Positions 3,701 through 37,193 of a stretch of 37,193 bases of DNA are shown in pieces. The translations under genes were made by a program, and so were the position numbers. The stretch comes from a virus. Its lineage: Duplodnaviria > Heunggongvirae > Uroviricota > Caudoviricetes. Numbering within the stretch: the first letter of the stretch is position 1; each line of letters opens with the position of its first letter. The notes beneath the pieces were generated by a model that was not told where the DNA came from, made no database searches, and worked only from the letters and a program-made list of their open reading frames with translations. The stretch is from positions 1-37,193 of the IMG/VR virus record IMGVR_UViG_2534681832_000017. One strand, written 5' to 3'.

Positions 3701-3806
3701 TCATGACAGTGGCTTCAGAGTGGAACCTCTTTTTGCCAGACGTTCTGTGTCTTGTAAGGGGGACACTCGAGGTGTAGCTCATGACGTTTTTGGTATATTG
3801 CTCTAA
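765..3806 (+). CDS. dmt: bifunctional DNA methyltransferase: N-terminal C5-cytosine MTase (interrupted by intein) fused to C-terminal Dam-type N6-adenine MTase
   Basis: GTG start coupled to upstream gene; C5 motifs: GGTP|CQAFSIAG (PCQ, split by insert), [28 protein letters not shown]; Dam motifs: [24 protein letters not shown]. Confidence 0.85.
996..2018 (+). mobile_element. intein (341 codons) with LAGLIDADG homing-endonuclease domain, inserted at catalytic Cys of the C5-MTase PCQ motif
   Basis: Insert begins CFTAGHMV (Hint block A-like), contains TTNDHPF (block B-like), [12 protein letters not shown] (1380-1415) and [11 protein letters not shown] (1656-1688), ends NGAVVHN followed by Cys+1 (2019); excision restores [12 protein letters not shown]. 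Confidence 0.8.
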
Positions 3807-4479: not shown

Positions 4480-4555
4480 GATGGTGTAGCTCAGCGGTTA
4501 GAGCAGTTGGCTGTTAACCAACTGGTCGGTAGTTCGAATCCACCCACCATCGCCA
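4480..4555 (+). tRNA. tRNA-Asn (anticodon GUU)
   Basis: Cloverleaf: acceptor GATGGTG/CACCATC, D-arm GCTC-AGCGGTTA-GAGC, anticodon loop CTGTTAA, T-loop TTCGAAT, discriminator G, encoded CCA; one A-C mismatch in T-stem. Confidence 0.8.
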
Positions 4556-4560
4556 CTTTA

Positions 4561-4647
4561 GGGGAGTTAGTCCGTAGGGGTAGCGGGGTAGACTGTAAAT
4601 CTACTGTCATTGCGACTCGGGTGGTTCGACTCCATCACTCCCCACCA
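4561..4647 (+). tRNA. tRNA-Tyr-like (anticodon GUA), type II with long variable arm; non-canonical D-arm
   Basis: Acceptor GGGGAGT/ACTCCCC 7 bp, anticodon arm GTAGA-CTGTAAA-TCTAC, variable arm with GTC/GAC hairpin, T-arm GGTGG-TTCGACT-CCATC, encoded CCA; D-stem only forms with a 3-4 nt linker after the acceptor stem. Confidence 0.55.
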
Positions 4648-4651
4648 CATT

Positions 4652-4727
4652 GCCGATTTAGCTCAGTTGGTAGAGCAGTCGCTTTGTAAGCGAATGGTCA
4701 GCGGTTCGATCCCGTTAATCGGCACCA
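4652..4727 (+). tRNA. tRNA-Thr (anticodon UGU)
   Basis: Acceptor GCCGATT/AATCGGC, D-arm GCTC-AGTTGGTA-GAGC, anticodon loop TTTGTAA, T-loop TTCGATC, encoded CCA; resembles E. coli tRNA-Thr(UGU) from memory. Confidence 0.85.
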
Positions 4728-6313: not shown

Positions 6314-6389
6314 GGCCCCTTAGCTCAGTGGTTAGAGCTGGCGACTCATAATCGCACGGTCACCGGTTCAAGTCCGGTAGGGGCCACCA
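6314..6389 (+). tRNA. tRNA-Ile2-like (anticodon CAU; body resembles E. coli ileX rather than tRNA-Met)
   Basis: Acceptor GGCCCCT/AGGGGCC, D-arm GCTC-AGTGGTTA-GAGC, anticodon loop CTCATAA, T-loop TTCAAGT, encoded CCA. Confidence 0.75.
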
Positions 6390-21518: not shown

Positions 21519-22247
21519 ATGAAAGGCGAAGTGAAAGAGCGCGGCATGATTTTCAACGATGAGATGGTCCGGGCCATCCTCGAAGGAAGGAAAACGCAGA
21601 CGCGGCGGATAATGAAAAATCAGCCTGCGGAAGTTGGTCCAGAAGCACCAGTGATGGTTAGAAAAATTGGTGCAGGTTTTCAGTGGTACGGGGCTGATGG
21701 TGTAAGCAGTGTTTTCAATTGCCCCTTTGGTATCGTCGGCGATCGAATTTGGGTTCGTGAAACATGGGCGATATTAGGCAATGAGGATGGTTGCAGTGTG
21801 GACTGGAACGACAACCTTTGTCGTGGCGATGAGAAGAACGCAGCAAGGATTTATCGGGCCAGTTGCGAGCAAAAACCTGGTGATTACGGCTTATGGTCGA
21901 TACCCGATGATGCCGACTGGAAACCTCACACTGTGAATGAAAAGTTTGATGGTGGGTGGCGTCCATCAATTCACATGCCGCGATGGGCATCACGCATCCT
22001 GTTGGAAATTACCAACGTGCGCGTTGAGCGGTTGAACGATATCAGCGAATGCGATGCAAGGGCTGAGGGCGTTCCGCCTGCTGGGAGTTTGCTTCCTGAT
22101 CACCCGGGAACATTCCTTACTCCCAAGGGGGATTTCGCAATGGCCAAGGTTGCGTTCCAGCGCCTGTGGGAATCCATCTATGGTGAAGAAAGCTGGAACG
22201 CTAATCCCTTGGTGTGGGTAATCGAGTTTAAGCGCATTCAGGAATAA
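21519..22247 (+). CDS. conserved phage protein, ASCH/PUA-like N-terminus
   Basis: ORF track; N-terminal MIFNDEMVRAILEGRKTQTRR (GxKTxxxR) resembles ASCH-type fold (recalled). Confidence 0.5.
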   Translation: MKGEVKERGMIFNDEMVRAILEGRKTQTRRIMKNQPAEVGPEAPVMVRKIGAGFQWYGADGVSSVFNCPFGIVGDRIWVRETWAILGNEDGCSVDWNDNLCRGDEKNAARIYRASCEQKPGDYGLWSIPDDADWKPHTVNEKFDGGWRPSIHMPRWASRILLEITNVRVERLNDISECDARAEGVPPAGSLLPDHPGTFLTPKGDFAMAKVAFQRLWESIYGEESWNANPLVWVIEFKRIQE

Positions 22248-22330
22248 ACCGTGAGTATGCATCAAATCGTCAGTTTTTCAGGTGGACGAGCATCGGCCTG
22301 TCTCGTTCATCTGTTCGAAGAGGTAGTGGC

Positions 22331-22534
22331 ATGACAATCGTAAAAACCCATACCGGCACCGTGATCACCAAAGACGGGCCGCAGGTAAAAAAACTGCACC
22401 AAACAGAGCGGATGTGGGTCGTCGGCAAAAATGAGTTTTACCACAAAGATACCGGACGCCGCCACTTTGCAGAAAATACGCGCCGTCGACTGCTGTTAGA
22501 CACCATCAAGCCTATCGAGGTGAAGCATGTTTAA
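22331..22534 (+). CDS. hypothetical small protein
   Basis: ORF track. Confidence 0.4.
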   Translation: MTIVKTHTGTVITKDGPQVKKLHQTERMWVVGKNEFYHKDTGRRHFAENTRRRLLLDTIKPIEVKHV

Positions 22535-22766
22535 ACAGAACGAAAAAGCTATCGCTCAAATTGCTGATTATATCCCGCGTGCGTGCCGGGGTATGCAGTT
22601 GCAGGAAGCCAAAGCGCGCCTGGAGAAAAAAATTGCGCTCTATATTGATGACGGCTGTGATGCTGCCGTTCTTAACGCGGCGTTCGCACCAGCTCTTAAC
22701 AGTCATACTCGGGAGTCTTTTTTTTCGTGCATCGAAGCGCAACTCCGCAAAGGAGGCAGCCAGTGA
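22527..22766 (+). CDS. hypothetical small protein
   Basis: ORF track; stop overlaps GTG start of next gene. Confidence 0.45.
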   Translation: MFKQNEKAIAQIADYIPRACRGMQLQEAKARLEKKIALYIDDGCDAAVLNAAFAPALNSHTRESFFSCIEAQLRKGGSQ

Positions 22767-23464
22767 GCGAAATTAATTACCGGGCACTGCGTGAGATAGC
22801 AAAACAGGCAACACAGGGCGAATGGGTCGCATTTATTTCGCCGGGTACTGGTACGTATGCGGTGCACACGCCCGGTGATGAACGATGTGAAGACGTTATC
22901 AAATGGACCGGCTTTGATGGACAGAAAAATGCAGAGAACAACGCTCGTCATGTTGCCGCGTTCAACCCAAAGGTTGCACTGGAGCTGCTTGGTGAAATTA
23001 AGTGCTTGGAGGACACAAATATTGATGCCACGTGCCGAATTTCAGAGCTTGAGACTAATCTCGCGGCGCTGGTGGCAGAGAACGCCGGGCTGAAACACGC
23101 AATGGCCGTAACTCTTGAGCATGTGTCGGTCACGGATGCAGGGCAGGCTGGTGTTGCTGCAATGATTATCAACGATGCCCTACACCACAGCGAAACTCCA
23201 GCTACCGATGCTTTTCTGGCTGAAATTCGTGCGGAAGCACGCAACGAGGGGATTAACTATACCGCCAGCCGTCTTGCTGCTGCGTTCAATCACGGATTTA
23301 TCAATAAGTCTTTGCGTGAAGTTTTCGACGTTACACGCATGATTTTGTCAGCGAAAGAAGAGTTGGCTAATGAACCGTACCCGATTGATGGCCTGTCTGG
23401 TGAATATGCGGAGAAATCCCTTGAAGAATGGGCGGAACAGATTAGCAAAGGAGGCAACCAGTGA
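22763..23464 (+). CDS. Ead/Ea22-like protein, paralogue 1
   Basis: GTG start in AAGGAGGCAGCCAGTGA coupling motif; N-terminus VSEINYRALREIAKQATQGEW matches paralogue at 23943. Confidence 0.5.
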   Translation: MSEINYRALREIAKQATQGEWVAFISPGTGTYAVHTPGDERCEDVIKWTGFDGQKNAENNARHVAAFNPKVALELLGEIKCLEDTNIDATCRISELETNLAALVAENAGLKHAMAVTLEHVSVTDAGQAGVAAMIINDALHHSETPATDAFLAEIRAEARNEGINYTASRLAAAFNHGFINKSLREVFDVTRMILSAKEELANEPYPIDGLSGEYAEKSLEEWAEQISKGGNQ

Positions 23465-23946
23465 CTTTACATGCAGCAATCCTCGACATGTGCTGTGGCA
23501 GTCGCATGTTCTGGTTCGATAAGAAGGACGACCGGGCGATATTTAGCGATATCAGAAAGGAAGAGCACACATTGTGTGATGGACGACGGCTGATAATTAG
23601 CCCTGACCTGATAGCAGATTTTCGTGCATTACCATTTGCAGACGCATCGTTTCCGATTGTTGTATTCGACCCTCCGCATCTTGAGCGTGTTGGTGATAAC
23701 GCCTGGATGGGAAAGAAATATGGACGGCTGAATAAAGATACCTGGCGTGATGATTTGCGGCAGGGATTTAAAGAAGCCTTTCGTGTGTTGTGGCCATACG
23801 GCGTTCTGATTTTTAAATGGAATGAAACGCAAATACCTGTTCGCCAAATATTGGCACTGACCGACAGAAAGCCTGTTATCGGTCAACGAACAGGAAAGGG
23901 TGACAAGACCCACTGGATTATTTTTATGAAGGAGGGCAACCAGTGA
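23461..23946 (+). CDS. small putative DNA amino-methyltransferase (DPPH motif)
   Basis: GTG start, GTGA coupling; motif I-like ILDMCCGSRMFWFD and motif IV-like IVVFDPPH. Confidence 0.5.
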   Translation: MTLHAAILDMCCGSRMFWFDKKDDRAIFSDIRKEEHTLCDGRRLIISPDLIADFRALPFADASFPIVVFDPPHLERVGDNAWMGKKYGRLNKDTWRDDLRQGFKEAFRVLWPYGVLIFKWNETQIPVRQILALTDRKPVIGQRTGKGDKTHWIIFMKEGNQ

Positions 23947-24716
23947 GCGAGATTGACTATCAGGCGCTGCGTGAAGCAGCAGAGAAAGCAACTAAAGGAT
24001 GCTACATCGTAGGGCATACATCGGGCAATCAGCATGAGAATATAACAGGAGTTTTTGTTTGTCAAAAATGGAAAGGAGAACCCGGTGGCGTAATTGCAGA
24101 ATGTCATGTTAACTGCCTGATTGAATCAGATGATCAGGCTTATGCAAACGCTGAATTCATAGCAGAGGCTAACCCGGCTACCGTGCTGGCACTGCTGGAT
24201 GAACAGGAAAGAAACCAGCAATACATCAAACGCCGCGACCAGGAGAACGAGGAGATTGCGCTTACGGTTGGGAAGCTGCGTGTTGAGCTTGAAGCAGCAG
24301 AGAACAACCTTATTGATAGTGAATGCCATGTTGCTGAACTGGAAGAAGCTCTACGCGATAAGCAGGCGTTACTTGAAGCCTCAGAAAAGCGCAACGCAAA
24401 ATTACAAAGCGAGAATGCATACATCCGCAACCGGTACAAAGAACTGGACCTATTAATCGGGAAAAACATTCTGGTCATGCAGGCTGCCATTATCGAATGG
24501 CAGGCAACTGGCGACGCTAAGAGCGGACTAGCATGGATTTATAACACACTGTTTGGCCCTGGCGAATTACCGGACGAATCTGAGAAAGATGCTCAGGCCT
24601 ACTTTAATCGCAAATATGCACCGATTGACGAAAAGCTTATGGCGCTTCACAAGTGGTTTTGGGAACAAAGTGAAGCCGAGCGCGCCGCTGGCATTCGCAT
24701 CAAAGGAGGTGAGTAA
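23943..24716 (+). CDS. Ead/Ea22-like protein, paralogue 2
   Basis: GTG start in same AGGGCAACCAGTGA coupling motif; N-terminus MSEIDYQALREAAEKATKG; central coiled coil. Confidence 0.5.
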   Translation: MSEIDYQALREAAEKATKGCYIVGHTSGNQHENITGVFVCQKWKGEPGGVIAECHVNCLIESDDQAYANAEFIAEANPATVLALLDEQERNQQYIKRRDQENEEIALTVGKLRVELEAAENNLIDSECHVAELEEALRDKQALLEASEKRNAKLQSENAYIRNRYKELDLLIGKNILVMQAAIIEWQATGDAKSGLAWIYNTLFGPGELPDESEKDAQAYFNRKYAPIDEKLMALHKWFWEQSEAERAAGIRIKGGE

Positions 24717-24871
24717 TGCGTGTGGCATGTATCGGCTTGTTACCGTATCCGACTCGTTTTTGGGCTTCTGCGCTAATTGCAAAGAACATCATCCCGACAC
24801 CAAAGCGCCGCCATACCGGTATTGCAGCGGCACGACGAGCAGCAAAGAGATGCAGGAGAGCAAAACGATGA
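24716..24871 (+). CDS. hypothetical small basic protein (51 aa)
   Basis: TAATG overlap with upstream gene, SD AAGGAGGTGAG; ATGA overlap with next ORF. Confidence 0.35.
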   Translation: MRVACIGLLPYPTRFWASALIAKNIIPTPKRRHTGIAAARRAAKRCRRAKR

Positions 24872-25056
24872 AAAACCGTAAAGCAAAGATTCTGTTAGTT
24901 CGTAGAAACGCTCCTGGCGTCTGGCAGTGGGTGAGACTCAGCAACCGACGGATGGGGTTGATGAAATATTACGGGATGATGGATTGTGGTTTTTGCAAAA
25001 AGCCCAGCGCGGAGCAAAACCGCTGGAAAAACCACTTGCGCACTAAAGGAGAGTGA
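24868..25056 (+). CDS. hypothetical small protein (62 aa)
   Basis: Internal start of track ORF 24553-25056 chosen because the upstream part overlaps the preceding gene. Confidence 0.4.
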   Translation: MKNRKAKILLVRRNAPGVWQWVRLSNRRMGLMKYYGMMDCGFCKKPSAEQNRWKNHLRTKGE

Positions 25057-25057
25057 T

Positions 25058-25267
25058 ATGGCTATTGCTGCAAGTTACACCATGCATCTCTATTGTGATT
25101 GCCTCCAGTGTACAGATGGCAAATATAAGTCGCCAGACTTCGGTGAGTATATAGGTACGTCATGGGCTGGCTGTGCAAAAGAGGCGCGCAAGGATGGCTG
25201 GCGAATAAGCAAAGACAAAACGCGTGCTTTTGCGCCCGGGCATAAAGTTTTGAGGATTAACAAATGA
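25058..25267 (+). CDS. small Cys-rich protein
   Basis: ATG one nt after upstream stop, SD AAAGGAGAG; CDCLQC...C motif. Confidence 0.45.
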   Translation: MAIAASYTMHLYCDCLQCTDGKYKSPDFGEYIGTSWAGCAKEARKDGWRISKDKTRAFAPGHKVLRINK

Positions 25268-26106
25268 CCACTATTACCAAAGAGCGACTGCTGACAATCA
25301 AGCAGTGGCGCGAAACATACGGACCTGGTAGCAACGTTGTACTGCCAGCAGAAGAAGCGGAAGAACTGGCACGGATTGCTCTGGCAGCGCTGGAAGCTGA
25401 ACCTGTTCTGTATCAGTCCTGCACTCGCCCCACTTGGAATAGCGGTGTTCCGTGGACGGAATGGAAAGAACGTAGTCGTGAGGGCTACGAAAACGATTTG
25501 CGCTTTACAGACACGCCTGACCATGCCGGTTGGATAAACAAATGCCGAAAACTATATACCACTCCGCCAGTTCCGGTAATACAGGCTGATGTCGCGCAAG
25601 CAATTGAAAACCTCAAGCAGAAGTTAGTGGAATGCAATCGCTATAACTACTGCGCAGATGCAGTTAAAGGCGTAGAGGATGCCTGCCGTGCTGTTAGCTA
25701 TAGCCAAGCCGACAATCAACCAGCATCTGGCAACCAGGCTGCCGAATCCAATCGCGGTAATGAGTGGACTGGCAATCCTGATATTGATAACGCCATCATC
25801 ATGCTCGACCGCATAGATACGCTGGAAAATTGCGATGATGACCGTATTGAGGCTGTTAAGGCTGTTTTGCGTAGACTGGCTGGCAACTCTCCGGTAACTC
25901 CGGATAGTTGGATAAGCTGTAGTGAGCGAATGCCGGAAGAAACGGGTGACATTATTGTTGTTTCTGATGGCATTGTAATGTCAGGGATTTCTTATTCTCG
26001 TCGTGACGGGTTCTATATAGCCGCATTGGAGTACGACGACGATGAGCCAATTGGCGGTGTAACCCACTGGATGCCGTTACCAGAACCGCCGCAGGAGGCA
26101 AAATGA
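25264..26106 (+). CDS. phage protein with DUF551-like C-terminal domain
   Basis: ORF track; C-terminus WISCSERMPEE...GVTHWMPLPEPP. Confidence 0.55.
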   Translation: MTTITKERLLTIKQWRETYGPGSNVVLPAEEAEELARIALAALEAEPVLYQSCTRPTWNSGVPWTEWKERSREGYENDLRFTDTPDHAGWINKCRKLYTTPPVPVIQADVAQAIENLKQKLVECNRYNYCADAVKGVEDACRAVSYSQADNQPASGNQAAESNRGNEWTGNPDIDNAIIMLDRIDTLENCDDDRIEAVKAVLRRLAGNSPVTPDSWISCSERMPEETGDIIVVSDGIVMSGISYSRRDGFYIAALEYDDDEPIGGVTHWMPLPEPPQEAK

Positions 26107-26363
26107 TGGATGTAAAAGAGAAGGTTTTGCAGGTGATGCGTTCCCGTGCTGCCCTGCAAGAGAAAGCTCTCGGCGGGGAATATCCATTCAGGATGGCAAC
26201 CTGGAATTTGCGGTTGGCAATGGAGAAGGAATTTCCTGATGAAGAATGGCGTTCGGCAGATTTGCGCAAAATTCTTATGGAGCTGGCTAAAGACGGAGCA
26301 GTATCCAAAGATACCTATGCCAGCCGGATTGGTCAGGCGGTATGGAGACTGGAGGTGCGGTAA
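26103..26363 (+). CDS. hypothetical small protein
   Basis: ORF track; ATGA-type coupling on both sides. Confidence 0.5.
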   Translation: MMDVKEKVLQVMRSRAALQEKALGGEYPFRMATWNLRLAMEKEFPDEEWRSADLRKILMELAKDGAVSKDTYASRIGQAVWRLEVR

Positions 26364-26644
26364 TGGCTAACCTGCAACTTGCCGTTAAAGGTGAATACTT
26401 CGATGCCATGATTCGCGGGGAGAAAACGGAAGAGTATCGCCTGTGTAATGACTACTGGAATAAGCGCCTCGTTAACTGTAAGTATGACCGCCTGATTATC
26501 ACAAAGGGATATCCGAAGCGCGAAGACTTCAGTCGCAGAATTGACGTCCCGTATAACGGATATGAAATAAAAACAATCACACATCCACACTTCGGTGATA
26601 AACCGGTAAAGGTGTTCGCGATAAAAGTGAAGATTAATAGCTAA
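26363..26644 (+). CDS. ASCH-like small protein
   Basis: Start at internal ATG with SD GGAGGTG; MANLQLAVKGEYFDAMIRGEKTEEYR. Confidence 0.5.
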   Translation: MANLQLAVKGEYFDAMIRGEKTEEYRLCNDYWNKRLVNCKYDRLIITKGYPKREDFSRRIDVPYNGYEIKTITHPHFGDKPVKVFAIKVKINS

Positions 26645-26667
26645 ATTTCAATTAACACGGAGTAATT

Positions 26668-26961
26668 ATGTGGCGCGGTAATAATCATGGCGGAAGTCAG
26701 ATGATACTTACCGAATATACGTTCGACCACAAAACCAATAAATCACGTTCAGTATATTTGCTTCGGCACAATAGCCGCGTAAGAAATACCGTTCTGGAGC
26801 AAAATCTGACCGTTGAAATGGATAATTTGGGAAACTTCAAGCCAACAATATCGCTTGATGATTTTCCGTGTGGTTTAAGCGAAAGAGAAGCAATGCTGAA
26901 ATTAGCAGAATGGCTACAAAGATTAAGCATTGCTATTGAAGATAACTGGCCTGAACCTTAA
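26668..26961 (+). CDS. hypothetical small protein
   Basis: ORF track; SD GGAG. Confidence 0.5.
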   Translation: MWRGNNHGGSQMILTEYTFDHKTNKSRSVYLLRHNSRVRNTVLEQNLTVEMDNLGNFKPTISLDDFPCGLSEREAMLKLAEWLQRLSIAIEDNWPEP

Positions 26962-26967
26962 ATTAAT

Positions 26968-27342
26968 ATGATGACACTAAAACATTTTCTTGACCGCCCA
27001 TTATGGGCGGCAGCCGCAGGCTATGACTTTAATTATATGGATTGCATGTCTTATACTGCCAATGCATACGACCATTCGTTCAGCCTGCTGTTTAATTCTT
27101 TAAGAATATTGCCGGAAACAGAAGTTGGAGAGCTTCATTTATGGATATTGGGCTTTATCGCGGCTGGAGTTGGTATTGCCGTATGGCCTTTTATTTTCTG
27201 GCTGGTGGCTGTTGTAGTGTGGTTTAAGTGCAAGACGTACCGGAAAAAGTATTTCTTAGGTGATGGAATGACTGATATTGCCAAAATGAACATTGAAAAA
27301 TGGACTAAGGAATGTGAAAAGAAATGGCGCAAAAAGAAATGA
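26968..27342 (+). CDS. hypothetical membrane protein
   Basis: ORF track; two hydrophobic helices (LWILGFIAAGVGIAVWPFIFWLVAVVVWF). Confidence 0.5.
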   Translation: MMTLKHFLDRPLWAAAAGYDFNYMDCMSYTANAYDHSFSLLFNSLRILPETEVGELHLWILGFIAAGVGIAVWPFIFWLVAVVVWFKCKTYRKKYFLGDGMTDIAKMNIEKWTKECEKKWRKKK

Positions 27343-28013
27343 CTACTCTAACGACAGCATACTTACAGCAATTGGTATTTTTTGCAGGCGAGGCTACTTG
27401 TCATCCTGACGCAAACTATTTATTGGAATTTGAGAGGTTAGCGTCACCCGGTATCGTTCTGGAACTGGCCCAACAGGTGCTGGCCTTGAGACAAAAAGAG
27501 CAACATGAAAGTAATACGTGTAGATTGAATTTTGAGCAGTGGCTGGAACAGCAACGCGGAAAAATCGATGTGGACTGTGGTTGTGTGTCCACTGAAACAT
27601 TCATGCACTGGCTGCGGGTAGCTTACGAGGCTGGCAACTATCCGGATATTCCGGATATTCCGGATAGTTCGGTGCCAGCGCCAGGAAAGGGCGTCACAGG
27701 TGAACGTATCCGCATTAAGCCGCATGTTTATCGCGAACTGGTTAACCGTCTCCACGATACAGCGATCAAGTGTGCTGGCACCCAGCAATTACGAGAAAGA
27801 ATTAGCCGTGTTTTGGGCGACGTTATTACGCCAGACCATCATAAACAAGCCGAGAAAAGTGACCTGGAAAGGTGTCACCTTGAGGCGGCATTAAACATTA
27901 AGCCGGGGCATACGCTTGGCATTATCGATGCTCTGTTGGTTCATAAGATGGCCAGGGCTTTATTGCCGCTGGTGGCTGAAAAGCATGAGGCGGACCATGC
28001 CAACGAAAGCTGA
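27339..28013 (+). CDS. hypothetical protein
   Basis: ATGA overlap with upstream gene preferred over track start 27324. Confidence 0.5.
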   Translation: MTTLTTAYLQQLVFFAGEATCHPDANYLLEFERLASPGIVLELAQQVLALRQKEQHESNTCRLNFEQWLEQQRGKIDVDCGCVSTETFMHWLRVAYEAGNYPDIPDIPDSSVPAPGKGVTGERIRIKPHVYRELVNRLHDTAIKCAGTQQLRERISRVLGDVITPDHHKQAEKSDLERCHLEAALNIKPGHTLGIIDALLVHKMARALLPLVAEKHEADHANES

Positions 28014-28281
28014 GTTACAGGCGCGCATAGATATTCTTGAAAAAGAGAATGCGAGTCTAAAAGGAATGCTGGCGCGGGCGGAAAGGGAATTATCAGGCAA
28101 ATTATTGCCAGAAGAGCTGCCACCAGCAGATATACCTGATCGAGTGTCCTGGTGGATGAAGTATTTCCGTGCACCGTGGGAGGCGTTTTGGTGCTACGAC
28201 CATCGCAGATGGTGTGATGAGCTTGATAGCAGTTTCCCCTATTTTGCGGAAGGGAACTCTTGCCCTGAATGTAGGAGTTAA
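27997..28281 (+). CDS. hypothetical protein, paralogue A (Cys/His C-terminal motif)
   Basis: Internal ATG of track ORF; C-terminus PWEAFWCYDHRRWCDELDSSFPYFAEGNSCPEC. Confidence 0.45.
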   Translation: MPTKAELQARIDILEKENASLKGMLARAERELSGKLLPEELPPADIPDRVSWWMKYFRAPWEAFWCYDHRRWCDELDSSFPYFAEGNSCPECRS

Positions 28282-28586
28282 TGATGACCGGCGAGCTTTA
28301 TTTTAAAATGGCACGGGAGCGGCGTGTGCATCTGGATCGGATATTTCATCTCCAGAAGAGAGTAGAAGAACTGGAACGTCGTCTGAACTGTTATCCTGTT
28401 GATATGGTGTCTGCAATACCGCCGATTCCAATAGAAATGCAGATCCGCCTATGGATGGAAGAATATGGAATGCCGTGGGAGATATTTTTCTGCTTCGACC
28501 ATAAACAGTGGGTAGATGAGCTGGATAATAGTTTCCCATATTTCACAGAGAACACATGCCCAGTATGCAGGAAGAACGGAATATGA
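28281..28586 (+). CDS. hypothetical protein, paralogue B (Cys/His C-terminal motif)
   Basis: ORF track; TAATG coupling; C-terminus PWEIFFCFDHKQWVDELDNSFPYFTENTCPVC. Confidence 0.5.
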   Translation: MMTGELYFKMARERRVHLDRIFHLQKRVEELERRLNCYPVDMVSAIPPIPIEMQIRLWMEEYGMPWEIFFCFDHKQWVDELDNSFPYFTENTCPVCRKNGI

Positions 28587-29107
28587 CAAAATTTGGAAAG
28601 CTGGAAGCTCATTTGCTAACTCGTAACTACCGCCATGATATACACCCATATAGACAGTGGATCGATGAAAGTGAAGGAGTAGTTACATTCCCTCTATACA
28701 GGTTTGATGGGATGTTGGCTGGGTATCAGACATATAGACCAGGTGCTCCTAAGCAGCATAGCAATCCGAAGATGGCCCGGTATTTCACGCGATCACATGG
28801 CAGACAGTTACTTTGGGGAACCTATCTTCCTTTAAAAGATGGCCCAATATGGATAACTGAGTCTATTTTTAAGAGCGCAGCTGTACACAACGCGGGCGGC
28901 AATTCGTGGGCGCTGTTAGGTTCGACTTTCTCCGCAGGATTACGCCGTCAACTTGCGATGCTGCCGTATGACTTTCGTGTAATAGGTGACAATGATGCGG
29001 CTGGTGAATTACTTGTGAAGTCTTTCGGAAAAGGTTTTGTGGCCCCGGATCTTGACGAGCTACAACCACATGAAGTGTCTCATTTGATTTTTAGCCATAG
29101 CCAATAA
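28583..29107 (+). CDS. Toprim-domain-like protein
   Basis: ATGA overlap start; conserved Glu (IWITESIF) and DxD (VIGDNDAAGE) spacing typical of Toprim. Confidence 0.45.
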   Translation: MTKFGKLEAHLLTRNYRHDIHPYRQWIDESEGVVTFPLYRFDGMLAGYQTYRPGAPKQHSNPKMARYFTRSHGRQLLWGTYLPLKDGPIWITESIFKSAAVHNAGGNSWALLGSTFSAGLRRQLAMLPYDFRVIGDNDAAGELLVKSFGKGFVAPDLDELQPHEVSHLIFSHSQ

Positions 29108-29123
29108 GCATCTCTCCCCTTTG

Positions 29124-29142
29124 AGGCCACAATTAGTGGCCT
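29124..29142. terminator. hairpin between convergent genes (possible bidirectional terminator)
   Basis: Stem AGGCCAC/GTGGCCT with AATTA loop. Confidence 0.45.
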
Positions 29143-29167
29143 TAAACAATGTGTTTTCTACCTCGAT

Positions 29168-29383
29168 TTAGCCTCTATTATCGTTTTGCATTTCTCTAAT
29201 CCGGTTCAGAACTACTTCATGCTGGGCTTGGATAGCAGCTTTTTCGTTTTCAAGTCGGGCAATAGACATCTCTAATTCTTTGCTGTACCAGGCGAGTTGG
29301 GCCAGGTTCATCCGGTTGTGGTCGAGAGTTGGAGACACTTCGACGCGATCCCTTTCTTCCTGCTTTAATGAGAAGAGATTCAT
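29168..29383 (-). CDS. hypothetical small coiled-coil protein
   Basis: ORF track. Confidence 0.45.
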   Translation of the reverse strand: MNLFSLKQEERDRVEVSPTLDHNRMNLAQLAWYSKELEMSIARLENEKAAIQAQHEVVLNRIREMQNDNRG

Positions 29384-29413
29384 CTCATCCCTTGAGGAAA
29401 ATTCAGCAACAAT

Positions 29414-29749
29414 TTATTGTTGATGATCCGGTCGCTGCGGCATCCTCGCCAGTATAAATGGCGGTTCTTTTGAAAACATGAATGTCGGTTCAGACCGTGT
29501 TTTTACCCAGCTTGCCTGCTGTCTTTCGGCAAGTTCACAGGCTTCATCATAGTTATTTGCCAAACCAAGCACGGATGGACGGTCCCACGCGCCACCATTC
29601 AGACAATAAACAACAATTTTCCCGTCAGGTTGTGTAACCCCATAGGGATGGTCCCACCAGACGTCCAGCTGAGCTTTAGAGCGTTTCTCGTTAGGAGTGC
29701 AGTCAAAATTTTTGGGCAATACAGGATCGAGAGGAATGCGGGCAGGCAT
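29414..29749 (-). CDS. hypothetical protein, divergent from humD and sharing its SOS-box region
   Basis: ORF track; 111 aa. Confidence 0.5.
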   Translation of the reverse strand: MPARIPLDPVLPKNFDCTPNEKRSKAQLDVWWDHPYGVTQPDGKIVVYCLNGGAWDRPSVLGLANNYDEACELAERQQASWVKTRSEPTFMFSKEPPFILARMPQRPDHQQ

Positions 29750-29884
29750 AGCTAATTCCTTATTAACTGATTGGCAACGAGGTTACGCTGATCCGTTGGT
29801 GATGAATAGTAGCAAAGCGCACAAAATCATCAGCGGTGGTTGATGTACGTAACGCGTTTGCACCAAAGGTGTCTCTTTAATGTA

Positions 29885-34062: not shown

Positions 34063-35546
34063 TGGCCAGAAGTTGCGTAACGGATCCACGTTGGCGCGAG
34101 CTGGTGGCGCTATATCGTTATGACTGGATTGCTGCCGCTGATGTTTTGTTCGGCAAAACACCTACCTGGCAGCAGGATCTGATTATTGAGTCTGTGCAGG
34201 AACAGGGTAGCAAGACATCTGTTTCGTCTGGTCACGGTACCGGGAAATCAGACATGACTTCTATCATGATCATGTTGTTCATAATCATGTATCCCGGTGC
34301 CCGCGCCATTATCGTTGCGAACAAAATTCAGCAGGTAATGACCGGTATATTCAAGTACATCAAGATAAACTGGGCTACTGCCACCAGCCGTTTTCCATGG
34401 CTTGCTGATTATTTTGTTCTGACAGAAACCGCTTTCTATGAGGTTACTGGTAAAGGTGTATGGACTGTAGTACCGAAGGGCTTTCGTCTGGGAAGTGAAG
34501 AAGCTCTCGCCGGTGAACACGCAGATCATCTTCTGTATATTATCGATGAAGCCTCCGGTGTCAGTGATAGAGCTTTCGGTATCATCACCGGTGCTCTTAC
34601 CGGACAGGATAACCGCATCTTATTACTGTCACAGCCTACACGCCCAAGCGGCTATTTCTACGATACTCACCATAAACTGGCCAAGCGTCCTGGTAACCCT
34701 GATGGCGTTTATACGGCGATCACGCTTAACAGTGAGGAATCACCGCTGGTAACGCCAGCATTTATCAAAATGAAGCTGGCGGAGTACGGCGGGCGTGATA
34801 ACCCTATGTACATGATTAAGGTACGCGGACTATTCCCTAAATCACAGGATGGCTTCCTTCTTGGACGTGATGAGGTTGAACGTGCGACGCGGCGGAAAGT
34901 CAAGATTGCCAAAGGATGGGGCTGGCTTGCATGTGTGGACGTTGCTGGTGGTACGGGACGGGATAAGTCCGTTATCAATATCATGATGGTGTCCGGCCAG
35001 AGAAATAAACGCCGTGTAATCAACTATCGAATGCTGGAATACACAGACGTTACAGAAACGCAGCTTGCCGCCAAAATTTTCGCAGAATGTAATCCTGAGC
35101 GATTCCCAAATATCACCATAGCTATTGATGGCGATGGCTTGGGGAAATCGACGGCTGATCTGATGTACGAACGCTATGGTATTACCGTCCAGCGTATCCG
35201 CTGGGGTAAAAAGATGCACAGCCGTGAAGATAAAAGCCTTTATTTCGATATGCGCGCTTTCGCGAATATTCAGGCGGCAGAAGCTGTAAAATCAGGTCGT
35301 ATGAGGCTGGATAAGGGGGCTGCGACTATAGAGGAAGCATCAAAGATACCGGTAGGGATAAATTCCGCAGGTCAATGGAAGGTGATGTCAAAGGAAGATA
35401 TGAAGAAAAAACTCAACCTGCACTCACCGGACCATTGGGATACATATTGTTTCGCTATGTTGGCGAACTATGTTCCCCAAGATGAAGTGCTTAGCGTCGA
35501 AGACGAAGCGCAGGTTGATGAAGCTCTGGCATGGCTTAATGAATGA
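34062..35546 (+). CDS. pacB: terminase large subunit
   Basis: ORF track; 494 aa; ATGA-type coupling to pacA; ATPase-like N-terminal region and DxD-containing C-terminal region. Confidence 0.75.
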
Positions 35547-35549
35547 ATA

Positions 35550-35566
35550 TTTGCTCTAATAAATTG
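35550..35566 (+). promoter_or_regulatory. C1-type operator (15/17) upstream of c4 module 3
   Basis: TTTGCTCTAATAAATTG directly after pacB stop. Confidence 0.5.
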
Positions 35567-35748
35567 TGTTTTTTAACTACCGATGTTACATTGAGCCTGA
35601 CCTCTTGCGCCTTGAGGCATTTTCGGTTTATGCTTATCAGGCACCTCATTAAAACGGGTGCCGGGATTGGCCTCCCGCTTAAGTCTAAGGCGATACAGAC
35701 GCCGCTCGCGTCTTTTTTTGTATCGGCGTACACGCACACCTCTACAAT

Positions 35749-35824
35749 GGTGGGCTGTATGGGGCTACCTTCGGGTAGGCTGGTTACCTTGGACGCCAGT
35801 AAGGCCAACTCCGTACAGTCCACC
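35749..35824 (+). ncRNA. c4-type antisense RNA, module 3 (divergent specificity)
   Basis: Same scaffold as c4 module 1 (GGTGGG...TTCG stem-loop...GCCAGT...GTCCACC) with compensated stem CTACC/GGTAG; b-prime CCTTGGA (35787-35793), a-prime AGGCCAA (35802-35808). Confidence 0.5.
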
Positions 35825-35884
35825 GCCAGCAAGATTGGTCTCTTCTGCGGTGGTTACATACCAACGTCTAAGGAGGCTGCCAAT

Positions 35885-36019
35885 ATGGCTACTATCCCTA
35901 CCCCAACTCATCCTGAATTTATCTGGCGCTTTTACTCCTGCCAAAAACGTCACTATCACTTCGTTATTGCACCAACAGAAGATGAGGCTCGCTCTTCAAG
36001 CGTACCCTGCACGTTTTGA
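35885..36019 (+). pseudogene. truncated icd homologue (44 codons)
   Basis: MATIPTPTHPEFIWRFYSCQKRHYHFVIAPTEDEARS then diverges and stops; SD AGGAGG overlapped by the module-3 b2 target. Confidence 0.5.
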
Positions 36020-36453
36020 TGGCGCATTCCTGGGGCATTTCTGATTGAGTCAATGCCATTTCTTCCAACATCTTCTTTATTAACGGCATTGCTAGCCACC
36101 AGCACCCCCCAGCTAGGGATAGCAAAATCAGGAGCGGTTTCGCATGCCTTTACCATATAATCGAAAGTGCTTCGATTGATCTCGTTTGCGTCGGGATTTA
36201 ATAGGCGAGAATATTGATATTTAGCATTTTCGTTGGTTGCGACTTTATATAGTTCTTGCTGCACCATCGCTTCAGAAAGTTTAAGACGTTTCATATCTGA
36301 CAGTAACTTCTTGCGCATGGATTCGTCTTGACTGACAGCAAAGCCGTAAACGTGCCCAAGGTATTTCGTATAATCGGTACAAATCTCCTTTACGCTTGAT
36401 GCTGCATTAACAGCCCCAGCTATAAATAATAACGGTAGTAATAGTTTTCTCAT
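35956..36453 (-). CDS. secreted/periplasmic hypothetical protein (signal peptide)
   Basis: Start at internal ATG with SD AGGTGAGG; MRKLLLPLLFIAGAVNAASS signal peptide with AxA site; 3-prime end overlaps truncated icd. Confidence 0.55.
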   Translation of the reverse strand: MRKLLLPLLFIAGAVNAASSVKEICTDYTKYLGHVYGFAVSQDESMRKKLLSDMKRLKLSEAMVQQELYKVATNENAKYQYSRLLNPDANEINRSTFDYMVKACETAPDFAIPSWGVLVASNAVNKEDVGRNGIDSIRNAPGMRHQNVQGTLEERASSSVGAITK

Positions 36454-36549
36454 TATAACCTCACCTGCCTTATAACTCATTTAGGGTACATATTTTCGCC
36501 TTTAAAAAAAAGAGGTTATTAGATCCAATTGTGTATTTATTAAGCACAC

Positions 36550-36566
36550 AATGCTCTAATAAATTT
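36550..36566 (+). promoter_or_regulatory. C1-type operator (16/17) upstream of c4 module 2
   Basis: AATGCTCTAATAAATTT; partial inverted copy just upstream. Confidence 0.55.
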
Positions 36567-36753
36567 GTATTTTTAAGTCGCGAATGCTATCTTTTCGCAT
36601 CATATTGACCTTTTAATCGTTCAGGCTTATAGTTCCGCCGTCGTAGCAAATTCTGCGACCGGGTTTAGCAGCCTGAATGTTAGTGCGGACAACCGCAGAT
36701 ATCCGATATTGCGGTATTTTTGTGTCCGTAAAACCGCGTTACGCCCAAATTAT

Positions 36754-36830
36754 GGTGGGGCGTGATGGGGAGGCTTCGGCCTGCTGGTTTCACTAACGCC
36801 AGTCTGCTAACCCCGTCACGTCCTGCCACC
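36754..36830 (+). ncRNA. c4: c4-type antisense repressor RNA, module 2 (altered specificity)
   Basis: 77 nt, identical scaffold to module 1 except b-prime CACTAAC (36791-36797) and a-prime CTGCTAA (36804-36810), matched by targets TTAGCAG / GTTAGTG upstream and in the icd leader. Confidence 0.65.
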
Positions 36831-36880
36831 TGTTTAGCAGCGGGTAGCAGGTTGTTAAACCTGTTAGTGAGGCCGTAACT

Positions 36881-37102
36881 ATGGTTAATGCCAATCCTTG
36901 CGCACGCCAAGAATTCATCTGGCGTTTCTATTCCTGTAAAAAACACCACTATCACTTCGTTATCGCAGCAACTGAAGACGAAGCACGCTCTCAATTGCCT
37001 GATGGCCCCTGCATTTTTACTGCCCGTTTTTCAACTAACTCGCGCAATTCACTTAGTTACTGGAGCCTCCCCTTCTCTGCCGACGTTCAGGGGGTTTTAT
37101 GA
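36881..37102 (+). CDS. icd: Icd-like small protein, module 2
   Basis: ORF track; 73 aa; paralogue of 9413-9634; ATGA coupling to downstream ant-like start. Confidence 0.65.
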   Translation: MVNANPCARQEFIWRFYSCKKHHYHFVIAATEDEARSQLPDGPCIFTARFSTNSRNSLSYWSLPFSADVQGVL

Positions 37103-37193
37103 AAAAACCTCTCGTCACCCGTAATGACATAGCCGAAGCGATCGCCCTGCATACTGCCTGTATGCCGACACGGGAGATCCCCGGCGCAATTGC
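37099..37193 (+). CDS. ant: antirepressor, module 2, N-terminal 31 codons only (runs off right edge)
   Basis: MKKPLVTRNDIAEAIALHTACMPTREIPGAIA parallels module-1 Ant N-terminus MRTSLVTREEMIEAIEQHTACISTRDIPGVIA. Confidence 0.6.
   Translation, partial: MKKPLVTRNDIAEAIALHTACMPTREIPGAI

Follow-up and report, generated by a model that had tools for sequence, protein, structure and literature searches.

The heteroimmunity of phages P1 and P7 is the textbook case of immunity by antisense RNA, and it is built on one module per phage and two alleles. What becomes of that picture when two c4-icd-ant modules of the same family, each with recognition sequences of its own, lie in one genome? The question is raised by the 37,193-nucleotide (nt) stretch of virus DNA analysed here, referred to below as the window (IMG/VR record IMGVR_UViG_2534681832_000017, positions 1 to 37,193). 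By its sequence, the window is part of a P1-like phage-plasmid of Escherichia coli. It carries one module at 9079–10665 (module 1) and another at 36550–37193 (module 2), which a preliminary description had called a second complete immunity module with reciprocally swapped antisense specificity. We find that module 2 belongs to the P1/P7 immI family by sequence criteria, yet is ectopic and has neither P1 nor P7 specificity. The explanation that we favour, as a probable though far from certain one, is that module 2 is a working-looking ectopic copy of immI lodged in a module of the isrK type, that the modules have two-box codes of their own, and that broader immunity follows as a consequence. 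Judged from these sequences, we are probably dealing with one prophage with several independent immunity specificities, as against one each in P1 and P7.

Module 2 consists of the following features, in order along the window.

36550–36566, plus strand: C1 repressor operator AATGCTCTAATAAATTT, with one mismatch to the C1 operator consensus and identical to the annotated P1 operator Oc4/Op51
36605–36633, plus strand: predicted sigma-70 promoter-like sequence TTGACC-17-TATAGT, a consensus match only, which aligns with the P1 promoter P1c4 (former P51b)
36627–36679, plus strand: c4-a1b1 leader motif (Rfam RF03163, 55.5 bits against a gathering score of 46.7)
36665–36671, plus strand: box a1, TTAGCAG, by direct reading
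36679–36685, plus strand: box b1, GTTAGTG, by direct reading, extending 6 nt beyond the RF03163 match
36754–36830, plus strand: 77-nt c4 antisense RNA, with ends taken from alignment to the annotated P1 and P7 c4 RNAs
36791–36797, plus strand: box b' of c4, CACTAAC, in a hairpin loop
36804–36810, plus strand: box a' of c4, CTGCTAA, in a single-stranded joint
36834–36840, plus strand: box a2, TTAGCAG, in the icd leader, homologous to the annotated a2 of P1
36863–36869, plus strand: box b2, GTTAGTG, in the icd leader, overlapping the GAGG Shine-Dalgarno sequence at 36869–36872 and homologous to the annotated b2 of P1
36881–37102, plus strand: icd, 73 amino acids (aa), a cell-division inhibitor homologue, from the list of open reading frames (ORFs)
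37099–37193, plus strand: 5' end of ant (antirepressor), whose start overlaps the icd stop (ATGA), about 31 codons before the window ends

The identity of 36550–36566 to P1 Oc4 marks it as a P1-type C1-controlled operator, to which binding of C1 is predicted. The C4 match to Rfam RF01695 (36748–36833, 70.0 bits against a gathering score of 45) brackets a c4 RNA that is 2 nt off P7 c4 and 3 nt off P1 c4. All six boxes are present and exactly concordant. The Shine-Dalgarno sequence lies 9 nt before the icd ATG at 36881, and b2 overlaps it, in keeping with the earlier remark that b2 abuts this site. The Icd protein of module 2 is 97% identical to P7 Icd, 95% to P1 Icd and 81% to the Icd of module 1. 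Only in part can the module be called complete: within the window ant is cut at 37193, and in sister records (plasmid p88_1577-1 and ten further assemblies) it is complete, with 344 aa, a Pfam ANT/KilAC domain and c1 33 bp downstream. At one of the isolate loci that we read (L015), ant is truncated.

Compared with P1, P7 and Ro157c2YLVW, the window has about 1.65 kb of additional DNA between dbn and gene 5, and this insertion is module 1. Its features are these.

9079–10665, plus strand: module 1 as a whole, with the code a = TTGACAG, b = GTACATG
9079–9095 (plus strand) and 9095–9111 (minus strand): C1 operator-like sites, from a consensus scan
9159–9211, plus strand: a1b1 motif (Rfam RF03163)
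9286–9362, plus strand: c4 (Rfam RF01695 match at 9280–9365, 70.7 bits), carrying CATGTAC and CTGTCAA
9366–9372 and 9395–9401, plus strand: boxes a2 and b2, by direct reading
9413–9634, plus strand: icd
9631–10665, plus strand: ant, complete (Pfam ANT, E = 7e-32)

The two operator-like sites form an inverted pair with one base in common; module 2 and P1 have a single site.

The claim that the two modules share a near-identical scaffold held up well. In addition to the Rfam matches, the 262-nt scaffolds (9151–9412 and 36619–36880) align without a gap and differ at 18 positions. The box sequences proved exact on direct reading in both modules, and so did the claim that the differences sit in recognition blocks that change together: 15 of the 18 fall within the 42 positions of the six 7-nt boxes (hypergeometric P = 6e-11), each box change is mirrored in both other copies of that box, and outside the boxes only 3 of 220 nt differ. 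Within the window, each a+b pair is found only inside its own module. Folding of the 77-nt stretch at 36752–36828, offset by 2 nt from the mature ends of c4, gave -45.1 kcal/mol (z = -5.8) with both boxes unpaired, and the c4 stretch of module 1, taken with the same offset, has the same fold and energy (z about -5.8 for both), with b' in a hairpin loop and a' single-stranded. The adjoining icd genes (9413–9634 and 36881–37102) are identical over their first ~30 nt and otherwise show near-saturated synonymous divergence (pS 0.68, dS ~1.7). A near-invariant noncoding scaffold beside a saturated icd indicates either very strong constraint on the leader RNA or repeated conversion that spares the boxes.

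We then compared the codes with those of P1 and P7, by alignment with the annotated records.

P1: a TTGACAG, b GTTAGTG
P7: a TTAGCAG, b GATTGTG
Module 2: a TTAGCAG (as in P7), b GTTAGTG (as in P1)
Module 1: a TTGACAG (as in P1), b GTACATG (in neither phage)

Module 2 thus departs from P1 in the a-box and from P7 in the b-box, and module 1 departs from P1 in the b-box and from P7 in both. An assignment of module 2 to the P7 allele and module 1 to the P1 allele was rejected by these alignments. The earlier analogy with P1 and P7 therefore stands as to the kind of difference that separates the two phages, although neither module is the allele of either, and "reciprocally swapped" understates a code that, as described below, combines two a-alleles with at least five b-alleles.

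The P7 immI locus (c4-icd-ant1/2; NC_050152, 50853–52448) is 98.1% identical in DNA over window positions 36552–37193. It has the same operator, scaffold and a-box TTAGCAG, and the first 31 Ant residues are identical. It differs in b1, b' and b2, which are GATTGTG-type in P7 and GTTAGTG-type (as in P1) in module 2; in its place, between upstream membrane-protein genes and kilA-repL, whereas module 2 lies between pacB and c1; and in the 3' end of ant, which in the sister records of module 2 is of the isrK-module type. The P1 immI locus (sim-c4-icd-ant1/2; NC_005856, 48140–49731) shares with module 2 an identical Oc4, the b-box GTTAGTG, 96% DNA identity and the same annotated layout of a1, b1, c4, a2, b2, icd and ant. 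Unlike module 2, P1 has TTGACAG in place of TTAGCAG in all three copies of the a-box, and simABC upstream, where module 2, at its ectopic location, has a truncated gene of the 215-aa type. The canonical position (sim ... c4 icd ant kilA repL) is occupied by neither module; the canonical copy lies elsewhere in a related complete plasmid. Because module 1 (between dbn and gene 5) and module 2 (between pacB plus an isrK-type remnant and c1) are both off this position, they are ectopic copies of the operon and not the immI locus itself.

Two modules had been counted at the outset, with the isrK-type one missed. Above gathering scores, Rfam detected three C4 RNAs in the window (9280–9365, 35743–35830 and 36748–36833), together with two c4-a1b1 motifs (9159–9211 and 36627–36679) and one isrK-like RNA (35641–35718), and the complete plasmid p88_1577-1 holds five C4 genes. 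The third C4 of the window belongs to the following set.

35550–36019, plus strand: isrK-type remnant (module 3) as a whole, with operator-like site, isrK-like leader, C4 and truncated icd
35550–35566: C1 operator-like site
35641–35718: isrK-like leader (Rfam isrK, 60.8 bits), with a1 TTGGCC, b1 GTCTAAGG and a terminator of its own
35743–35830: C4 RNA (Rfam C4, 75.9 bits), with b' CCTTGGAC and a' GGCCAA
35835–35840: a2, TTGGTC, by direct reading
35866–35873: b2, GTCTAAGG, by direct reading
35885–36019: truncated icd, with 37 native and 7 foreign codons

An isrK-C4 module comprises a leader, a C4 RNA, a short ORF and an antirepressor. At 35550–36019 icd is truncated after codon 37 and the antirepressor is absent, so the set is a remnant. 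In pO111_2 and pUTAK-15-2 the space from pacB to c1 is taken up by an intact isrK-type module that comprises isrK, C4, icd and an Ant of 370 aa; in pO111_2, IS1203 separates its icd from ant. The remnant resembles the isrK-orf45-anrP locus of Gifsy-1 in Salmonella (Rfam isrK RF01394; PMC4825925) in its arrangement: an isrK-like leader that has a terminator of its own comes first, then a C4-like processed RNA, then a short ORF with a targeted ribosome-binding site and, in intact relatives, an antirepressor gene. It differs from that locus in lying on a P1-like plasmid behind a C1 operator-like site, in being truncated with loss of the antirepressor, and in its short ORF, which is an icd homologue (the intact pUTAK-15-2 version is 88% identical to the Icd of module 1). 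A 158-aa ORF at 35543–36019 (plus strand) starts at the pacB stop and spans the isrK-like RNA, the C4 RNA and the truncated icd. It matches Pfam Phage_ASH (E = 1.5e-11), and RefSeq names it "ash family" or "Icd-like"; the Ash match seems here to be translated C4/isrK RNA genes and not a real protein.

How module 2 came to lie behind this remnant can be read from the sequence between them.

35956–36480, minus strand: truncated sim-like gene, a 3'-truncated copy of the gene upstream of c4 at canonical immI (215 aa when intact)
35986–35995, no strand: recombination junction GGCTCGCTCT, where the 5' part of the isrK-type icd is joined to the truncated sim-like gene

The sim-like gene is annotated as "simA domain protein" or as hypothetical and has a weak match to Pfam PTPlike_phytase. 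Its match to gp35 of Ro157c2YLVW and to many plasmids starts at 35986. Matches of the pO111_2 type and of the immI type overlap by 10 nt at the junction; the microhomology is imperfect (8/10) and the flanks are otherwise unrelated. In the sister records, the Ant of the module 2 locus has a P7-type N-terminus and an isrK-module-type C-terminus. These observations show that the left junction of module 2 (35986–35995) is illegitimate and that the right crossover fell inside the homologous 3' part of ant. In this lineage a canonical immI segment, comprising the 5' part of the sim-like gene, the operator, c4, icd and most of ant, recombined into an isrK-type module and replaced the 3' part of its icd and the 5' two-thirds of its ant; the segment came from a P1-like plasmid with this allele at its only immI. 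Plasmid NZ_CP009168.1 has one immI, the canonical one, with a scaffold 100% identical to that of module 2; judged by this identity, an immI like that of NZ_CP009168.1 (E. coli 1303) is the kind of donor expected.

The junction is genuine. The exact 158-aa fusion ORF that spans it is indexed in 337 blocks of public assemblies, and the same junction is found in the complete RefSeq plasmid NZ_CP074805.1 (p88_1577-1). Ten loci that we read, from ten assemblies, have the same order of pacB, remnant, truncated sim-like gene, icd, ant and c1, and diverge from the window by 2–5% over matched pieces that make up 80–100% of its last 10 kb. The code at the module 2 site varies across isolates, with TTAGCAG/GTTAGTG, TTAGCAG/GATTGTG or TTGACAG/GATTGTG and patchy sequence differences, which is consistent with ongoing gene conversion.

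By homology to P1 (P1 GenBank annotation; PMC8546580) and in line with the general picture of P1 immunity, the modules would work as follows. The operon would be transcribed from a C1-controlled promoter and the 77-nt c4 RNA processed out of its transcript. The unpaired a' and b' of c4 would anneal to a2 and b2 of a transcript of that kind, covering the icd ribosome-binding site and thereby blocking icd and the translationally coupled ant, whose products Ant1/Ant2 would otherwise inactivate C1. A lysogen with several c4 species would pre-silence the antirepressors of several incoming types of P1-like phage, and would so gain broader immunity and protection against trans-induction. As an invader, the same element would deliver several differently coded ant operons, all of which a resident prophage would have to match to stay repressed.

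Whether the c4 RNAs can act separately was estimated with RNAduplex on isolated boxes, a crude measure calibrated on the one heteroimmune pair P1/P7. Cognate pairs gave -24.3 to -25.2 kcal/mol, and P1 against P7 gave -12.3 and -15.2 kcal/mol. The corresponding values were -13.5 and -11.9 kcal/mol for module 1 against module 2, -6.6 and -7.7 kcal/mol for the c4 of module 3 on the leader of module 1 or 2, and -8.4 and -11.0 kcal/mol for the c4 of module 1 or 2 on the leader of module 3. Pairs that share only the b-box were predicted at -19 to -22 kcal/mol, and pairs that share only the a-box at -14.5 to -18.7 kcal/mol. Since cross-pairing between modules 1 and 2 is predicted to be as weak as that between P1 and P7, orthogonality is plausible. 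Modules 1, 2 and 3 of the window have no box in common, so that silencing by each c4 should be limited to the icd and ant of its own module, and the three c4 RNAs are predicted by these energies to be mutually orthogonal.

The modules appear to be in use. A consensus scan found 10 C1 operator-like sites in the window (starting at 3797, 3808, 9079, 9095, 15560, 19183, 19232, 21324, 35550 and 36550), against 0.11 expected by chance, and such sites precede all three modules. The ratio of nonsynonymous to synonymous divergence (dN/dS) is 0.06 for icd and 0.09–0.22 for ant, also between isolates. Purifying selection, together with the operator-like sites before every module, argues that the modules are used.

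Stacking is not confined to the window. Below, codes are abbreviated by a few inner letters of the a- and b-box, so that AGC/TACA stands for TTAGCAG with GTACATG. The five C4 genes of p88_1577-1 are as follows.

Canonical immI, next to kilA-repL: AGC/ATTG, the P7 code
Module 4, next to cre: AGC/TACA (a TTAGCAG, b GTACATG)
Module 2: AGC/TTAG
Module 1: GAC/TACA
isrK-type remnant: the fifth C4 gene

Plasmid pUTAK-15-2 has four mutually distinct modules, a layout presumed to be ancestral. A D6-like plasmid of enterotoxigenic E. coli has three C4-icd modules, with the codes AGC/TTAG, AGC/ACGAATG and an isrK-type TTGGAAC/GCAAAAGG, each followed by a Rha-family gene in place of ant. It thus seems that c4-icd can be coupled to various payloads as a portable control cassette. 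Rha-coupled c4-icd modules were seen at locus L036 (26710–27200 and 46735–48158) and locus L037 (28691–30112; NZ_CP122809.1), as well as at L033–L035. In the replicons examined, which are few and phylogenetically related, the co-resident codes are all non-redundant. The P1-type scaffold occurs in 537 of 5426 complete E. coli genomes, where 550 records hold it at 666 places; the median per genome is 1 and the highest number is 5. Of 60 c4-bearing E. coli records sampled evenly, 11 contain at least two P1-type modules.

The interval next to cre, which is the res-mod place in P1, is a variable island (about 16100–20477 in L007–L016; 47479–52313 in p88_1577-1). Depending on the isolate, its cargo includes c4-icd-ant (with a 370-aa Ant that has ORF6N and ANT domains), SIR2, a RecA-dependent nuclease, PIN-domain proteins, RelA/SpoT, a type III restriction-modification system and an EAL-domain gene. 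With this content the island resembles a defence hot spot that counts an immunity module among its cargos.

To describe the code itself, we collected 37 P1-type modules and took their boxes by alignment-based extraction. Two a-alleles (TTGACAG and TTAGCAG) and five b-alleles (GTTAGTG, GATTGTG, GTACATG, ACGAATG and ACTTACG) were found, and all ten a x b combinations are present. In 36 of the 37 modules a1 and a2 are identical to each other and to the reverse complement of a', and b1 and b2 likewise to that of b'. The exception, L009 (GCA_031530125.1, contig ABMJYW010000018.1, 11077–11337), lies at the module 2 site. Its a1, b1, b', a' and a2 have the TTAGCAG/GATTGTG code, and b2 with its flank belongs to the ACTTACG allele, which is why its own c4 is predicted to be unable to pair at the ribosome-binding site. 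This hybrid leader looks like the product of a crossover between a2 and b2 and, on its sequence, may be a natural escape with constitutive icd/ant or a leader under the c4 of another module. Exact-pattern scans returned four loci in IMG/VR, two in metagenome contigs and two in one-genome-per-species contigs. Four distant C4 modules were read by eye (L017, L018, L023 and L024, from IMG/VR contigs and from Achromobacter and Rugamonas metagenome-assembled genomes; L017 and L018 belong to the ~70% identity class), and the three copies of each box matched, for the b-boxes of L024 approximately only.

The order a1, b1, b', a', a2, b2 is interleaved, so a new a/b combination cannot arise by one crossover. 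This arrangement implies that new codes would come about by short-patch exchange or by stepwise compensatory change under selection. A wider generalization, which we put forward tentatively and hold to be possible without being likely, is that immunity in the P1/D6 group is set by a combinatorial two-box RNA code, with stacks of three to five differently coded modules in natural plasmids, a further set of codes in isrK-type modules, a set-inclusion rule and an arms race. If that is true, superinfection and induction would be decided by set inclusion, a resident being immune only when each ant module of the invader has its match in the resident's c4 set. The number of modules would then escalate in an arms race, and the codes would diversify by short-patch exchange on a near-invariant RNA scaffold.

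Several observations weigh against the ectopic-immI explanation with its broader immunity, and some of them favour other accounts. Only about 31 codons of the module 2 ant are visible within the window. Extra modules are seen in decay, with IS1203 in pO111_2, a truncated ant in L015 and the truncated icd of module 3 in the window. The P7/P7 code found at the module 2 site in some isolates equals the canonical immI code of both complete plasmids of Shiga-toxin-producing E. coli examined; the variation at this site suggests gene conversion and weakens the claim that co-resident codes must differ. Orthogonality, plausible as it is, depends on the crude energies of isolated boxes and on one calibrating pair, and the benefits of broader immunity and of breaking immunity are putative. 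Moreover, in the whole plasmid, module 4 has the a-box of module 2 and the b-box of module 1 (predicted at -14.5 to -22 kcal/mol); boxes common to several modules make cross-talk likely and full orthogonality of all switches doubtful. A cross-regulated network, in which shared a- or b-boxes let some c4 RNAs partly repress other modules and so set up a hierarchy instead of orthogonality, is accordingly a possibility of some weight, though we think it rather unlikely. It would fit p88_1577-1 and pUTAK-15-2, where the b-box of module 4 is that of module 1 and its a-box that of module 2 and of the canonical module. It would likewise fit the strong pairing predicted for b-sharing modules (-19 to -22 kcal/mol) at b2, the box that covers the Shine-Dalgarno sequence, and the b2 of L009 (ACTTACG), which is unmatched to its own c4 and equals the b-allele of other modules. 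The three modules of the window, however, share no box at all.

The remaining accounts fare worse. That the extra modules are neutral debris of a highly mosaic plasmid, with only the canonical immI of importance, seems improbable to us. The illegitimate junction that created module 2 did destroy two genes, the module 3 remnant has no ant, some copies carry an IS insertion or a truncation, and more than one P1-type module was found in only 11 of the 60 evenly sampled c4-bearing records, the median per genome being 1. But the extra copies of icd and ant are under strong purifying selection (dN/dS 0.06–0.22, also between isolates), dozens of isolates have kept operators, promoter and all six boxes intact and concordant, the arrangement recurs in hundreds of assembly blocks on backbones that are 2–5% divergent, and D6-like plasmids have stacked modules independently. 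Still less credit goes to the idea that c4 and icd form an addiction or abortive-infection cassette resembling a toxin-antitoxin pair, with Icd as toxin and c4 as antidote, that stabilizes the plasmid rather than conferring immunity. It draws on the annotation of Icd homologues as cell-division inhibitors, on the lowest dN/dS being that of icd (0.06) and on the Rha-family payload of the D6-like plasmids, which makes c4-icd the conserved core. Derivation of c4 and icd from one C1-controlled transcript is nevertheless atypical for a stable toxin with an unstable antidote, and the plasmid already has phd-doc and hok-sok. Finally, the two modules might come from different molecules, joined by misassembly: five repeats of 80–98% identity in one replicon invite it, and the junction occurs in only 1 of 5426 complete E. 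coli genomes. We nonetheless regard such an artefact as next to impossible. The junction lies in unique, non-homologous sequence outside the repeats; the exact fusion ORF is present in 337 blocks, and the same gene order in ten independent assemblies with 2–5% divergent backbones and in a complete plasmid; and module 1, at a distance of 26 kb, is part of one contiguous P1 backbone with it and occupies the position that it has in many complete plasmids. The check for a chimeric contig that the preliminary description had called for thus excludes a chimera at the assembly level.

The stacked and differently coded modules add to the known immI switch and are not a new principle. Extra copies have been reported before. 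Venturini et al. 2019 (PMC6906374) described an ant gene between pacB and c1 in pTZ20_1P and RCS47 and homologues of icd-ant1/2 at the res-mod site of pSvP1; modules 3 and 2 (pacB-c1) and module 4 (res-mod) occupy those very sites here. A second c4-icd region was noted in a D6-like plasmid (PMC6799933). Unlike the present work, these reports are remarks on gene content. In the searchable literature, key older P1 papers being beyond its reach, we found no study of recognition boxes in co-resident modules, of their combinatorial alleles or of such a hybrid module. The CI RNA of P4 with seqA and seqC (PMC4825925), compared by its description only, is alike in being an immunity RNA processed from the transcript that it controls, with complementary sequences upstream and downstream, and unlike in its outcome, which is transcription termination of replication genes, and in having neither icd nor ant.

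Natural P1-like plasmids, which are common in Shiga-toxin-producing and other E. coli, carry several modules in which a- and b-boxes combine freely, in contrast to the one module and two alleles of the textbook. If the modules are orthogonal, this would explain mutual exclusion or induction of related phage-plasmids in the same host populations, give a simple rule for the outcome of superinfection, and provide at least ten natural, near-isogenic pairs of short antisense RNA and target for synthetic regulation. If orthogonality does not hold, boxes common to several modules would link the antirepressors in a cross-regulation network that is likewise undescribed in the searchable literature. The modules should interest specialists in phage immunity and RNA regulation.

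As to the replicon, the window has the P1/P7 backbone, with a dam-type methylase, a tRNA cluster, ban/dnaB, tail genes, phd-doc, lpa and pacAB. Matches at 97–99% were obtained with numerous complete plasmids, from Shiga-toxin-producing E. coli and from other strains of the species. The closest is p88_1577-1 (NZ_CP074805.1), whose aligned parts are 97.9–99.8% identical to the window; that the window is the p88_1577-1 molecule itself was rejected, as the accessory segments are partly different. Window positions 21610–29876 match this plasmid in pieces only. This variable block separates the replication/tail genes from humD-phd-doc and is made up of small genes, among them ead/Ea22-like, DUF551, DUF4752 and ASCH genes. 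In p88_1577-1 (L003, 10067–10391 and 30357–30555), we noted hok/sok (Rfam sok, 114.8 bits) and an IS009 RNA match (192.4 bits) inside the tail-fibre region. Four tRNA genes lie at 4480–4724 and 6314–6386 of the window, annotated in the sister plasmid as Asn, Tyr, Thr and Ile, and the one at 4561–4644 has a much lower Rfam tRNA score (41.9 bits).

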